Source: an uncultured Actinomycetes bacterium
Lineage (GTDB): Bacteria > Actinomycetota > Thermoleophilia > Gaiellales > JAICJC01
DNA length: 64,000 nucleotides
Reading direction: 5' to 3'
Assembly (NCBI GenBank): GCA_963737445.1
Contig: CAVTSO010000001.1
Span: 398,551-462,550, forward strand
Part shown: positions 48,475 through 53,692 of the stretch, piece after piece
Numbering within the stretch: the stretch's first letter is position 1
Layout: each line of letters begins with the position of its first letter
Translations under genes and position numbers: made by a program
Notes under the pieces: generated by a model
Database searches by the model: none
What the model was told of the DNA's origin: nothing
What the model saw: the letters and a program-made list of their open reading frames with translations, nothing else

Positions 48475-48728
48475 CGCTCATGCTGGCTGCTTGGCAGCCG
48501 CCGTCGTCGTGCACCTCGCCGCGCCACGCCGCGAGGCCCTCGCGCCGCCGCCCGTGCACCGAGCGTCGAGGTCAGAAGGTTCGGCAAGAGCGCCGTCGGT
48601 ACCTCGTCCCCCATGTCAGATAACAAGCTCGCCAGGCCAATCCCCGCCACTCCGCGGGTCATCCACCCGCGCTTCGGCTGGTCGTGCTCCTGTTCGCGAA
48701 TCTCCGCCATCGATGATTCTTCCATCAT
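48444..48728 (-). pseudogene. MFS transporter, N-terminal fragment only
   Basis: The ATG overlaps the stop of the upstream MutS-like gene (ATGA at 48725-48728). GVAGIGLASLLSDMGDEVPTALLPNLLTSTLGA is a typical first-TM region of an actinobacterial MFS. The frame decays after about 60 aa and the CDF-like gene begins. Confidence 0.4.
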
Positions 48729-50311
48729 GCGCCCCCTGACCCGCGGCCGATGGGCGGCAGCTGGGTCACTGTGTGTTCCGGGGCGGCGGGCTGCTTGCGG
48801 GGTGGCTCCGTGGAGCTGGTCGCGGCCGCCGCGAAGATGCGGCGGTAGGAGTCTTGGCCGTGGCTGGTAGGGAGTGGCGGGCCGGGCGTCACCCGGAAGG
48901 TTCGGGTGCCGTCGGACAGCCGTTCGGCGCGCAGGAACCGTGCGCTCTCGATCTTCTGGCGGTAGAGGCTGTCTGCGAGGTCGTAGAGGTGGGTGACGAC
49001 GTAGACCTTCACGCCGACGTCGAGCATCGCGTGGATCACCTGCCGCGCGATCTCGGAGCCTTCACGCTCGTTTGTGGCGGCGAACGACTCGTTGCACAGC
49101 AGCAGGCATGCGGGCGTGATCTGGTCGGCGATATCGCTCATCCGGTGCAGCTCTTCATCGAGCTTGCCCTGCGTCATGGTTGGATCCTCTTCCCGCTTGA
49201 AGTGAGTGAAGACCGCGTTCACAACGCTCGCTTGGTAGGTCTCGGCGGTGACGTACATTCCTGCCTGCATCATCAGCTGGGCCAATCCGAGGCTGCGCAG
49301 GAACGTCGACTTTCCGCCCTGGTTGGCGCCGGTGATGAGCATCAGCCGGGTGCCGTCGGCGTCAATGTCGTTGCCCACGATCGATGCGCTGAGGTGGAAG
49401 GCGAGCGCGGCATCGTAGAGCGAGCGCGCAGACGTATGCTGGGATGAGGTTGGTTCGGGCGTCGGGAAGCAGGTGGGGAGCTGTTTCGCGGTGAGTTGCT
49501 CGTGCAAGTTCAGGCAGCCGACGTAGAAGGCGAGTTCGGCTCGCAGCGTTTTGCAGAAGCTGAGCACGTGATCGGTCGCTTGGGCGAGCGCGTTGGCGAC
49601 GTGGTTGACGCCTCGGCCGCGCAGTTCGGCGAGCGCCTGCATTCCGTACTCGTCTCGGTCTGCGATCGTGAAGCTGTAGCCTGCTCGCCCCGGCGCGGTG
49701 ATGCGCTCGATAAGGCGGCGCGGTTGCGGCTTTCGCAGGACGAAGTTCGTGCCACGGTTGGCTCTGCCCAGCGTCGCGCTGATAAGCGTACCGTCGCGGA
49801 AACGCATCTGCTTGAGCTGGTGATCGATGGTCTGCAGGTAGGCGTCGTCAAGGTCGCGCTGGAGGGTCGCGAAGAGTTCGGTGAACGCTTGTGAGCAGAA
49901 CGCGGAGCTGTGGTCGTCGGCGATTCGCCGAAGCTCTCGCAGGACGTCGGTGAGCATCTGCAGCATGCCGACGGACTTCTGCAAAACCGAGTCGGGAGAG
50001 TCGCGAAACCAGAAGAACCTGGCGTCGCGCTTGGTATCGACGCCTTTGACCGCCAGGGCGTAGAGCTGACGAATGACCGTGGGATGCTCGAGACAGTCGG
50101 CCAGAGCCCGTTGGCGGTAGCGGATCGCGTCGGGGTCGGTCAGCCCGAGCAGCAGGCCGCTCCGCGCGACGCTGCGCAGGTAGTCGTCGCCGCGGGCCAT
50201 CGCATCGTAGAGCGTGGGGAGTTCGAGATCCCGCTCCAGCGCATCGGCGTTTGCGGGAAGCTGCGCCTCGAGGTCAAAGTCACGATCGGGGTGCATCAGG
50301 TATGCCTTCAT
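48725..50311 (-). CDS. MutS-family ATPase (domain V only), paralog B
   Basis: 528 aa. Walker A ITGANQGGKSTFLRSLG, Walker B LLLCNESFAATN, MutS-type TQGKLDEELHRM and VVTHLYDL. No mismatch-binding or nuclease domain is recognisable. Confidence 0.8.
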   Translation of the reverse strand: MKAYLMHPDRDFDLEAQLPANADALERDLELPTLYDAMARGDDYLRSVARSGLLLGLTDPDAIRYRQRALADCLEHPTVIRQLYALAVKGVDTKRDARFFWFRDSPDSVLQKSVGMLQMLTDVLRELRRIADDHSSAFCSQAFTELFATLQRDLDDAYLQTIDHQLKQMRFRDGTLISATLGRANRGTNFVLRKPQPRRLIERITAPGRAGYSFTIADRDEYGMQALAELRGRGVNHVANALAQATDHVLSFCKTLRAELAFYVGCLNLHEQLTAKQLPTCFPTPEPTSSQHTSARSLYDAALAFHLSASIVGNDIDADGTRLMLITGANQGGKSTFLRSLGLAQLMMQAGMYVTAETYQASVVNAVFTHFKREEDPTMTQGKLDEELHRMSDIADQITPACLLLCNESFAATNEREGSEIARQVIHAMLDVGVKVYVVTHLYDLADSLYRQKIESARFLRAERLSDGTRTFRVTPGPPLPTSHGQDSYRRIFAAAATSSTEPPRKQPAAPEHTVTQLPPIGRGSGGA

Positions 50312-51903
50312 CGGCCGATGCGGCTCCTCAGCCGCTCAGAGGAGAGCCCGTACTTGTCGGCCAGGGCGGCCGCATAGGCGCGGCCGTCGGCCGGCCGGCG
50401 GACGATCTTGAATGTGCGCCGCGTCGGATCGTCGGAAGCGACGGTCGCTACCAGACTCACCGTCTCCTCCCCCAGCCGCGACAGCTCATCGATAAAGGTG
50501 ACCCAAACGGTCGCACAGCCCACATCGACGATACGCCGCAGGACCTCGCTCCCCAAGTAGACGGCGTCGGCCAGGGTTGTCGACGCAAATACCTCGTTGA
50601 GCACCAGGATGCTGCGATCGGTCGCGTGCTCGAGGATTTCGCGCAGCCGCACGAGCTCGTTGTCCAGCCGGCCGCGCAATGTCGAGATGTCCTCCTCCTC
50701 CTCAAACAGCGTGAAAATGTGATCAGCGAGCACGAGCTGCGCTCGGCGTGCCGGAACAGGCACGCCGAGGCTGGCCAGATAGTGGAGTTGGCCGAACGAC
50801 CGCGCGAACGTGGTCTTGCCGCCCTGGTTTGGGCCGGTGACGACGAGGATCCGCTCGGCGCCGCGAAGCATGAAGTCGTTGGTGACGAGTGTCGAGCCGC
50901 CGCCGGCGAGCTTGGTCGCGAGGGCGATGTCGAAAGCGCCTTCGGCCGTAACGTCTCGCAGCTGGGTGGAGACGCTGGGATAACTAAAAGCAAGGTCCGG
51001 CGTCTGGAGCGTGTCCATGTACTCCAGGTATGCGAGGTAGAACTGCAGTTCACGGTCGAACCGGGTGATGCGCGGATCGGGGAATCCGGCCTGGCGGGTG
51101 CAGAACTCCCCGAGCGCGGCGAACTCAGTCGGAAAGAGGCGGCTGACGAGTTGCACGATCCGCGCTTCGACGTGGTCCATCGAACCGGAGTCGGGAACCC
51201 TCACCAGGTGATCCTCGGCGTCTCCCTGGCGGAACCGGGCAAACGTCTGTGCCACCTCGACGGTGTAGTCGGCCTCGCCGTCGTAGGCGCGAACGGTGAC
51301 ACGTCCACCCTTGATCCTCGTCGTGTACCTCACCCGTGCCAGGCCGTCGAGCACGTCGCGAACCTCGTGGACGAGGACCCCGAAACGATCGGATGAGCGG
51401 TATCCGGCGAGGTAGTCGCGCAGTGCGCAGAATCCCTGCGAGGTGAGGTCAACCACGGCCAGCCCGTCGGTCAGCCGGCTGACCGCGTCGCAGTAGATCG
51501 ATGCGGCATCAAGGAACCAGCGCTGCTTCTCCTGTGGGTATCGCTGCTTCTCGGCGAGGGCGAGGTACTGCCGCATGGTTCGCATGCTCTGGGCGAACCC
51601 GCTCACCGCGGCTCGGAGGGCATCCTGTTCGAGATCGCGGAACACGTCGTGTCGGGCGTAGACCGCTTGTGGGTCGTCGAGCGGCGTGTGGAAGAAGCGT
51701 TCGAGCGCGTACTCGTCCCGCCCGGCGACGATCCGGCGGACGACCTGATCCAGGTTCAGATCGGCGAAGCAGGCGGGCTCGAGCGGTTCGGCGTTACCCG
51801 ACTCGGAACTGCTGAAGAGGATGCTGTCGAACTCGGCGACGGGCGTCCCATCGGGGGGGACGGGCGGCTGCGAAGGGGTATCGAGGCGATCAGAACGCGT
51901 CAC
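50308..51903 (-). CDS. MutS-family ATPase (domain V only), paralog A
   Basis: 531 aa with a GTG start at 51903. Walker A VTGPNQGGKTTFARSFG, Walker B ILVLNEVFASTT, STLRGRLDNELVRL and WVTFIDEL. Its stop overlaps the paralog B start (ATGA). Confidence 0.8.
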   Translation of the reverse strand: MTRSDRLDTPSQPPVPPDGTPVAEFDSILFSSSESGNAEPLEPACFADLNLDQVVRRIVAGRDEYALERFFHTPLDDPQAVYARHDVFRDLEQDALRAAVSGFAQSMRTMRQYLALAEKQRYPQEKQRWFLDAASIYCDAVSRLTDGLAVVDLTSQGFCALRDYLAGYRSSDRFGVLVHEVRDVLDGLARVRYTTRIKGGRVTVRAYDGEADYTVEVAQTFARFRQGDAEDHLVRVPDSGSMDHVEARIVQLVSRLFPTEFAALGEFCTRQAGFPDPRITRFDRELQFYLAYLEYMDTLQTPDLAFSYPSVSTQLRDVTAEGAFDIALATKLAGGGSTLVTNDFMLRGAERILVVTGPNQGGKTTFARSFGQLHYLASLGVPVPARRAQLVLADHIFTLFEEEEDISTLRGRLDNELVRLREILEHATDRSILVLNEVFASTTLADAVYLGSEVLRRIVDVGCATVWVTFIDELSRLGEETVSLVATVASDDPTRRTFKIVRRPADGRAYAAALADKYGLSSERLRSRIGR

Positions 51904-51924
51904 TGGCTTCCACCGTTGGGGTCG

Positions 51925-51975
51925 CGGTAGAAGCCATCAGCCCTCTCGGGCGGTTTCAGGCGGGCCTCATCGCCT
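51925..51975 (-). promoter_or_regulatory. fluoride riboswitch (crcB motif) aptamer
   Basis: The minus strand reads AGGCGAUGAGGCCCGCCUGAAACCGCCCGAGAGGGCUGAUGGCUUCUACCG. Block for block this matches the well-studied Thermotoga fluoride aptamer GGGCGAUGAGGCCCGCCCAAACUGCCCUGAAAAGGGCUGAUGGCCUCUACUG (recalled from memory). A TACATT -10-like hexamer (51987-51982) lies 6 nt upstream, and the GTG of the MutS-like gene lies 21 nt downstream. Confidence 0.85.
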
Positions 51976-52274
51976 GCTCACAATGTACCCGACGGGAGCG
52001 CTAACCGATGACCATCACCGGACAGCTCGCACGCCGGATCGACCGGGCAGCTGGGGATATCGACACCCGAAGCCGTCCCAGCCGGGGCGTCCACCTCGGC
52101 TGTCGAAAGCCCTCCAAGCTGCATTCGCCCGGTGCGCGATTACCATCACGACACCGGAGGCAAGGCGGTTCGCCTCGTCGAACCCAGCCGCCATGGCGCG
52201 CCGGCCCCGCGGCGTCGGTTCCACCACCACCATGACGGAGCGCCGTCTCCGATCCGCACAGGCGAGGGGTAGGC

Positions 52275-52517
52275 ATGGGACAGCCGGACGACCAGCACCG
52301 TGAGCAGGTGGCGATTCTGTGGTCAGGTGCCGCATTCATGGCCGTGGCGCTGATCGGCCATCTGCTGCTTCCGCCCGTCGACGTCCTCTGGATCGTGATC
52401 GGGGGCTTTGGCCTTCTCGCCGTTCGCGCAGGCCTTCCTCCGGCGGCGCTGAACGGCCGGTCACGGCCCTTACGGCTCGGCTATAGTGGGCGCGGACGCG
52501 ATGAGGCTCGCGCTTAA
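52275..52517 (+). CDS. possible small 2-TM membrane protein
   Basis: GAGGGG lies 5 nt before the ATG, and two hydrophobic helices are present. However, the 3' end overlaps the promoter and aptamer of the plus-strand riboswitch, so the ORF may be spurious. Confidence 0.3.
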   Translation: MGQPDDQHREQVAILWSGAAFMAVALIGHLLLPPVDVLWIVIGGFGLLAVRAGLPPAALNGRSRPLRLGYSGRGRDEARA

Positions 52518-52546
52518 CCGCCCCCGTGGCTGATGGCCTCTACCAC
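52488..52546 (+). promoter_or_regulatory. fluoride riboswitch (crcB motif) aptamer
   Basis: GGGCGCGGACGCGAUGAGGCUCGCGCUUAACCGCCCCCGUGGCUGAUGGCCUCUACC has the same conserved blocks (GAUGAGGC, AACCGCC, GGCUGAUGGCCUCUAC). A TATAGT -10-like hexamer (52482-52487) lies immediately upstream. Confidence 0.85.
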
Positions 52547-52650
52547 TTTGGGTAGACCACGCCACGAAAGGAGCAGCGGTTGGAGCATATGCGAGTCGCA
52601 ACGGCCGACCGGCGATCACTGACGACGGCACCGATCCGTAGGCTGGCGTC

Positions 52651-53692
52651 GTGAACGTCCCGGCGCTGAAGCTGACCCTGTATTTCAACGAGACGCTCCG
52701 CTGCCGCGGTCATCTCGCGGCGGACCTGCTGTTGGACATGTTCGAGCACGCAGACGTCATGGCCAGCGTGCTCCTCCGCGGCATCGAGGGATTCGGTGCT
52801 CACCACCGACTCCACACCGACCGCTTCGAAAACGCGAGCCTGAACCAGCCGATCGTCGCCGTCGCCATGGATCGTCAGGATCGCATCGAACACTGGCCTC
52901 TCGGGTCGACGAGATCCTCGAAAGCGGGCTGGTCACCACCGAACGCGCCTGGCTGATCGGACAGCCCAGCGAAGGCGTCCTGCCGGCGGTCGCGTACGAC
53001 TCGGTCAAGCTGACCGTCTACTGCGGCCGGGCCGACCGCGTCTGGTGGACTGCCGTCCTACCGGGCGATCATCGATCATCTCCGCGCGAGTGGTGTCGAG
53101 GGAGCGACGGTGTTCCTGGGAGTGGACGGAACGGTGCATGGCCGCCGAGAGCGCGCCGCCTTCTTCTCGCGCAACCGCGAGGTGCCATTGATGATCGTCG
53201 CCGTCGGCCAACCCGACGCCGTCGCACGAAGCCTGCCGGGGATCCGCCGGCTCGCGGACAGGCCGATCATCACCGTCGAGGGTATCCAGATCTGCAAACA
53301 GGACGGCGAGCTGATCGCCGCTCCCACCCCGGCGCCGGGTCTCGGAGCGCGGCGGCATCTGGCGGAAGCTGATGATCCACGCCGCCGGCGACACCCACGT
53401 CGGCGGCGAATCGCTGCACTATCAGCTGGTCGAGCAGCTGCGCCGCATCGACGCGGCCGGCGCGACGTCACTTCGCGCGATCTGGGGGTATCGCGGTCAG
53501 GCGCCTGCCCACGGCGACTCGGTCTGGTCGATCAGACGCACGAGCCCTGTGGTCACGATCGTGATCGACCGCGATGAACGGGTCGGCGCGACCTGGGAGG
53601 TCATCGATCTGCTCACCCGTGAGGCTGGTCTGGTGACCAGCGAGCTCGTCCCCGCCCACCGCGCTCTGGCAGCGGAGGCCAGTGCCCGATGA
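52651..53692 (+). pseudogene. three tandem DUF190 (PII-like, CrcB-associated) domains in one gene; frame interrupted three times
   Basis: D1 LKLTLYFNETLRCRGHLAADLLLDMFEHADVMASVLLRGIEGFG. D2 VKLTVYCGRADRV/GGLPSYRAIIDHLRASGVEGATVFLGVDG. D3 RKLMIHAAGDTHVGGESLHYQLVEQLRRIDAAGATSLRAIWGYRG. There are no stops between domains in the corrected reading. Frame changes are at about 52897, 53040 and 53355. Confidence 0.7.

Follow-up and report, generated by a model that had tools for sequence, protein, structure and literature searches.

The minus strand of the window, as we call the whole 64,000-nucleotide stretch of DNA analysed here, carries a fluoride riboswitch aptamer in the leader of a gene for a MutS-like protein (MutS-like A), and the 3' strand of the aptamer pseudoknot can instead pair with a segment that runs up to the start codon of that gene. 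Nucleotides 51935-51930 are common to the pseudoknot and to the resulting 12-bp hairpin, so the two folds are mutually exclusive. We favor the reading, with a probability of about three in four, that the leader as a whole is a translational switch that fluoride would turn on, that would mask the start codon in its OFF state and that would be decided co-transcriptionally. Coordinates below refer to the minus strand unless marked (+).

The aptamer matches Rfam family RF01734 (51921-51983) with 51.7 bits against a gathering score of 34 (E = 2.1e-11), and the cmscan alignment spans the whole model, positions 1-64. A covariance model built in this analysis (R1) gives the window aptamer 67.6 bits. 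The structure comprises P1 (51974-51971 with 51962-51959), P3 (51951-51948 with 51943-51940) and a pseudoknot from the P1 loop to the 3' tail (GAGGCC, 51968-51963, with GGCUUC, 51935-51930). The core nucleotides GGCGAUG, AACCGCC, GGCUGAUG and CUAC are all found in the window aptamer in the cmscan alignment, and the aptamer core is invariant or near-invariant in alignments A2 and A3. Among the 35 leaders of A3, P1 and the pseudoknot are 100% paired and P3 is 96.4% paired, with two-sided changes in P3 and in pseudoknot pairs. The aptamer lies in the 5' UTR of a MutS-like gene, a gene class recorded for the motif. The family score and the 96-100% pairing in relatives bear out an earlier note on this DNA, which had placed a fluoride riboswitch on the minus strand; by class, the RNA is a genuine fluoride-sensing aptamer, and it is predicted to bind fluoride.

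A −10-like hexamer, TACATT (51982-51987), preceded by GG, stands just upstream, the order on the minus strand being TACATT, gtgagc, A51975 and the aptamer. When 36 leaders were anchored on P1, the hexamer fell in register with GGTAnnAT, a motif conserved at −15 to −8 relative to P1, with T at −13 in 24 leaders, A at −12 in 24, A at −9 in 20 and T at −8 in 25, in a region with a background of ~70% G+C. The 36 aligned leaders have no conserved −35 element. A scan for E. coli-type promoters gave no match; such a scan is uninformative for an actinobacterial −10-only promoter. Actinobacterial −10 boxes have the form TANNNT, with the start 6-8 nt downstream, and A51975, directly 5' of P1, lies 6 nt past the hexamer, at a position (−1) where 31 of the 36 leaders have an A. 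Because TACATT is both in register and at the TANNNT spacing, the transcript should begin at A51975 or its neighbor G51974, as predicted from the alignment. The proposal that TACATT makes the transcript start at the aptamer fits this pattern.

Downstream, GGCUUCUACC (51935-51926), which contains the 3' pseudoknot strand, is followed by an 11-nt spacer, GCGACCCCAAC (51925-51915), by GGUGGAAGCC (51914-51905), by A51904 and by the GUG start codon of MutS-like A (51901-51903). The earlier note was correct in all its coordinates and counts for the arms, the 11-nt spacing, the GUG and TACATT. Its 10-bp alternative helix exists and is part of the minimum-free-energy (MFE) fold of the leader (−44.7 kcal/mol, z = −3.9), but its length needs correction: U51936-A51904 and G51925-C51915 add one pair at each helix end, making 12 bp with a 9-nt loop (51916-51924) whose sequence is not conserved. 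The 5' arm of this OFF hairpin is UGGCUUCUACCG (51925-51936), which includes the pseudoknot strand 51935-51930, and the 3' arm is CGGUGGAAGCCA (51904-51915), which ends 0 nt from the GUG. When the downstream 45 nt were shuffled 20000 times, the pseudoknot strand formed a helix of at least 12 bp in 7 trials and of at least 10 bp in 119.

The 3' arm holds GGUGGA (51914-51909), the sole purine-rich, Shine-Dalgarno (SD)-like stretch, so the alternative helix does, as had been claimed, cover the only SD-like sequence and adjoin the start codon. GGUGGA is an imperfect SD that may nonetheless function as one. GUG 51903 is the earliest start codon of the open frame, and the N-terminus that it opens (MT..RLD) matches that of ~530-aa homologues. 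To go by these positions, the site where the ribosome lands is very probably hidden inside the hairpin when fluoride is absent.

Protein-alignment scans of genome and metagenome collections yielded 160 related loci, and the aptamer covariance model gave 111 and 75 matches in the two sets of loci. At these 160 loci a fluoride aptamer usually lies upstream of the MutS-like gene, often together with a second, divergent aptamer. The layout of the window recurs in 34 related leaders, which we call the start-masking class: UGGCUUCUACCG, a variable loop, CGGUGGA(A/G)GC, 1-9 nt, and then AUG, GUG or UUG. About half of the 34 are metagenome contigs; the named genome bins bear the labels of Gaiellaceae, Solirubrobacterales and other actinobacteria, mostly Thermoleophilia. 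The OFF helix is 96.4% paired in the 35-leader alignment, and RNAalifold applied to the 35 leaders independently yields P1, P3 and the 12-bp helix. The loop varies from 7 to 15 nt and is freely variable in sequence, as is the spacer, and between them CGGTGGARGC is near-invariant, with GGAGG present there in 12 of the 35. Both arms being near-invariant, a two-sided pair change occurs in one cell of the alignment only (L045, C-G), beside many U-A/U-G and U-G/C-G/U-A alternations. Support for the helix within the class is thus conservation and position rather than covariation, which is slight. More telling is the conservation of the 3' arm, which is not part of the aptamer and has freely varying sequence on either side, the loop and the spacer.

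The start codon, too, keeps to a narrow range of positions. Among the 34 loci with a verifiable ORF, and taking as start the first codon that opens a full-length MutS-like ORF, the start codon lies 1-9 nt past the arm core in 33, most often at 2 nt (18 loci). In the start-masking class no T-run follows the hairpin, no tail having more than 4 T among 8 nt; the E. coli-type promoter/terminator scan found no terminator-like site in the window. The translational ON design proposed in the earlier note agrees with the closeness of the start codon and with the lack of a T-run, which sets these leaders apart from those of other phyla, and we consider it the probable output of the leader. At five loci (L015, L104, L107, L140 and L141) the ATG behind the conserved start-masking hairpin is not the start of the MutS-like ORF; in L015, L107 and L141, for which the distance was measured, the MutS-like start is 90-560 nt further on, as if a small ORF had been inserted, or a frameshift had occurred, between riboswitch and gene.

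Leaders from Chloroflexota and several other phyla have the same hairpin with 6-8 T behind it and a gene that begins after another 40-440 nt; the hairpin sequence there tracks the local pseudoknot, as in AGCCUCUAC/GUAGAGGCU. To judge from its sequence, this version of the hairpin is a classical terminator. Terminator versions also precede MutS-like genes (L027, L030, L041, L047 and L065, from Chloroflexota and other loci). An anti-pseudoknot helix of at least 8 bp lies within 45 nt of 98 of the 133 distinct aptamers at the retrieved loci, as against 8 of 133 when shuffled. This is the controlled figure; the compensatory exchanges that follow the pseudoknot sequence (U-A 50 versus C-G 30, U-A 68 versus C-G 21 and A-U 72 versus G-C 16) are illustrative, the hairpins having been selected for pairing. 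Other fluoride leaders at the MutS-like loci, divergent ones included, often share the design with a canonical SD (GGUAGGAGG or AGGAG) and a start codon within 3-9 nt. ACUCCU, the consensus pseudoknot strand, already resembles an anti-SD; in the window it has drifted to GCUUCU, and the element that it masks is therefore GGUGGAAG and not the canonical AGGAG.

The homology of the window hairpin to these bona fide terminator stems raises the question of whether it, too, acts chiefly on transcription, as a U-less 'I-shaped' terminator or pause or by exposing an untranslated leader to Rho, with occlusion of the start codon secondary. Its stability (−19.4 kcal/mol) is terminator-like, and the kinetic control that it would require (see below) is typical of transcriptional riboswitches, but neither the window nor any of the 34 class members has a T-run after the hairpin, and efficient intrinsic termination by mycobacterial RNA polymerase in vitro depends on a U-tract. 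A terminator would, moreover, give no reason for conserving a start codon at 1-9 nt. We therefore regard a chiefly transcriptional role as unlikely, and translation initiation as the step that the hairpin would control.

The energetics bear on when the choice between the two folds would be made. The hairpin alone is worth −19.4 kcal/mol, against approximately −7.7 kcal/mol for the pseudoknot calculated as a duplex, and the OFF fold of the leader has −35.7 kcal/mol as against −19.5 kcal/mol with the pseudoknot strand held free. Even if the alternative fold is credited with the pseudoknot and with about −2 kcal/mol for fluoride at millimolar concentration, a term that assumes the Kd of roughly 50 uM given for the fluoride aptamer (PMC8814607), the OFF state is still favored by ~6-10 kcal/mol. 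This gap is difficult to reconcile with an equilibrium translational switch, in which hairpin and pseudoknot would interchange in the full-length mRNA and fluoride could alter their ratio whenever it was present. Many SD-sequestering riboswitches behave in that manner, and the wording of the earlier note is compatible with it, but by the folding model such a switch is unlikely here, and we leave it only a slim chance. The four inferences that made up the interpretation in that note all hold computationally; it is the simple equilibrium that the energy gap disfavors, and kinetic switching that the gap implies. Given so large a difference between hairpin and pseudoknot, the choice would be made kinetically, during transcription, as for the relatives with a terminator. 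It is scarcely credible that the helix arose by chance or simply reflects sequence conservation and regulates nothing: aptamer function constrains the 5' arm in any case, but the near-invariant 3' arm is outside the aptamer, between free loop and free spacer, and neither the rarity of 12 bp among the shuffles (7 of 20000) nor the excess of such helices next to aptamers (98 versus 8 of 133) would be expected.

The translational, kinetically decided switch that we favor can be set out as a sequence of predicted steps. A sigma-A-type promoter (−10 TACATT) would start the mRNA at or beside A51975, the first nucleotide of the aptamer. If fluoride and Mg2+ are bound while the leader is being synthesized, the pseudoknot (51968-63 with 51935-30) would be locked, CGGUGGAAGCCA would stay single-stranded, and ribosomes would start translation of MutS-like A at GUG 51903 and reach MutS-like B through an ATGA overlap. 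Without fluoride, the 3' arm would pair first with a toehold, ACCG (51928-51925), just 3' of the pseudoknot; the pseudoknot would then be displaced and the 12-bp hairpin would extend up to the start codon, hiding the SD-like GGUGGA and blocking 30S binding. The decision would fall while the 3' arm leaves the polymerase, and bound fluoride would bar strand invasion.

One further pairing was left out of this scheme, being present in only 4 of 35 leaders. The 5' strand of P1, AGGCGAU (51975-51969), is complementary to AUCGCCU (51887-51881), which encodes residues Asp-Arg-Leu at codons 5-7 of MutS-like A. The two segments pair in the MFE fold and are also complementary in L005 and L006, and in L084 with a matching change (AGGUGAU/AUCACCU). 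The pairing may be coincidental or may add a minor lock to the initiation region, which in a few loci it might help to close.

The genes that would be controlled are a tandem pair of paralogues, MutS-like A (531 aa, 50308-51903) and MutS-like B (528 aa, 48725-50311), the start of B overlapping the stop of A in an ATGA at 50311-50308. MutS domain V, the ATPase, is the only MutS domain in either protein (Pfam, 72.5 bits in A and 66.5 bits in B), and the N-terminal ~330 aa have no family match. We rejected an assignment to MutS1 or MutS2 proper, for which the NCBIfam equivalogs score 84 and 61 bits against cut-offs of 400-640. Both proteins are weakly similar to the KamC reactivase ATPase. The literature searched yielded no relevant functional study of riboswitch-linked MutS-like proteins.

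The window contains a second, divergent fluoride aptamer at 52488-52549 (+) (39.3 bits), upstream of DUF190 genes and of genes for hydrogenase-4/formate-hydrogenlyase-like membrane subunits. It has a −10-like hexamer of its own, TATAGT, at 52482-52487 (+). The plus-strand platform is unlike that of the MutS-like genes: an SD, AAAGGAG (52567-52573), precedes a 24-codon upstream ORF that starts at TTG 52580 or ATG 52589 and ends at 52654, its TGA overlapping the GTG with which the first DUF190 gene begins (GTGA, 52651-52654). In the MFE fold, GGCUCGC of the plus-strand aptamer pairs with GCGAGUC just past AUG 52589. The second of the three DUF190 copies (52990-53300 (+)) is split over two frames, with KLTVYCGRADR in one and GGLPSYRAIIDHL...VFLGVDG in the next, which points to a frameshift or to an error in sequencing.

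In the window 505 nt separate the two divergent aptamers (gap 51988-52487), compared with 39-77 nt in L003, L005 and L025. An 80-aa ORF (52275-52517 (+)) in the gap has a coding-like GC content by codon position and two hydrophobic stretches, and its 3' end overlaps the plus-strand aptamer; the other ORFs in the gap look non-coding.

Among previously described systems, the P. syringae eriC-F riboswitch is usually cited as a presumed translational fluoride riboswitch. With fluoride riboswitches presumed to be translational the window leader shares the terminator-less ON control of a fluoride-associated gene; it differs in its target, a MutS-like pair, and in its lineage, Thermoleophilia or other actinobacteria by the names of the bins. 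The Bacillus cereus crcB riboswitch, of the terminator type, has the same aptamer, and its ON response to fluoride and kinetic decision are what is predicted for the window; in both, a stable hairpin takes its 5' arm from the 3' pseudoknot strand and has its toehold just 3' of the pseudoknot. Unlike the B. cereus type, the window hairpin has no U-tract and its SD-like 3' arm ends at the start codon; the output expected of it is therefore translation initiation.

According to Weinberg et al. (2010, PMC2864571), mutS and formate hydrogen lyase genes are among those with crcB RNAs in their 5' UTRs, and the motif is often overlapped by predicted terminators. The window has both a mutS-like and a formate-hydrogenlyase-like gene set, each with an aptamer, in line with the reported crcB-motif/mutS association (PMC2864571), but its proteins, with domain V only and scores below all NCBIfam cut-offs, are unlike MutS proper. 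The statement in PMC8814607 that summarises Weinberg 2010 and Baker 2012 has fluoride platforms acting 'sometimes presumably through translation regulation'. Publications thus already cover the aptamer class, its ON logic, platforms without a terminator and the association with mutS-like and formate-hydrogenlyase-like genes; we found no published dissection of the MutS-like start-masking platform in the literature searched.

The window riboswitch is well supported but, as a case of a known type of switch, ordinary; it would not surprise a specialist, and what is known of the class stays unchanged by it. It adds a comparatively supported case of the less-studied translational fluoride riboswitch, annotated from the predicted promoter to the start codon, in which a large energy imbalance predicts kinetic control. 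Across lineages, one anti-pseudoknot hairpin appears to be reused either as a terminator or as a mask of the start site. More tentatively, and with the odds somewhat against it, the Thermoleophilia-type leader may be a terminator-derived, kinetically controlled translational switch that arose when the hairpin that ends transcription ahead of the orthologous Chloroflexota genes lost its U-tract and was set against the start codon. If so, the path from promoter to start codon would be a compact cassette of only ~90 nt, and the two kinds of leader would form a natural matched pair in which one aptamer and one hairpin give transcriptional and translational outputs.
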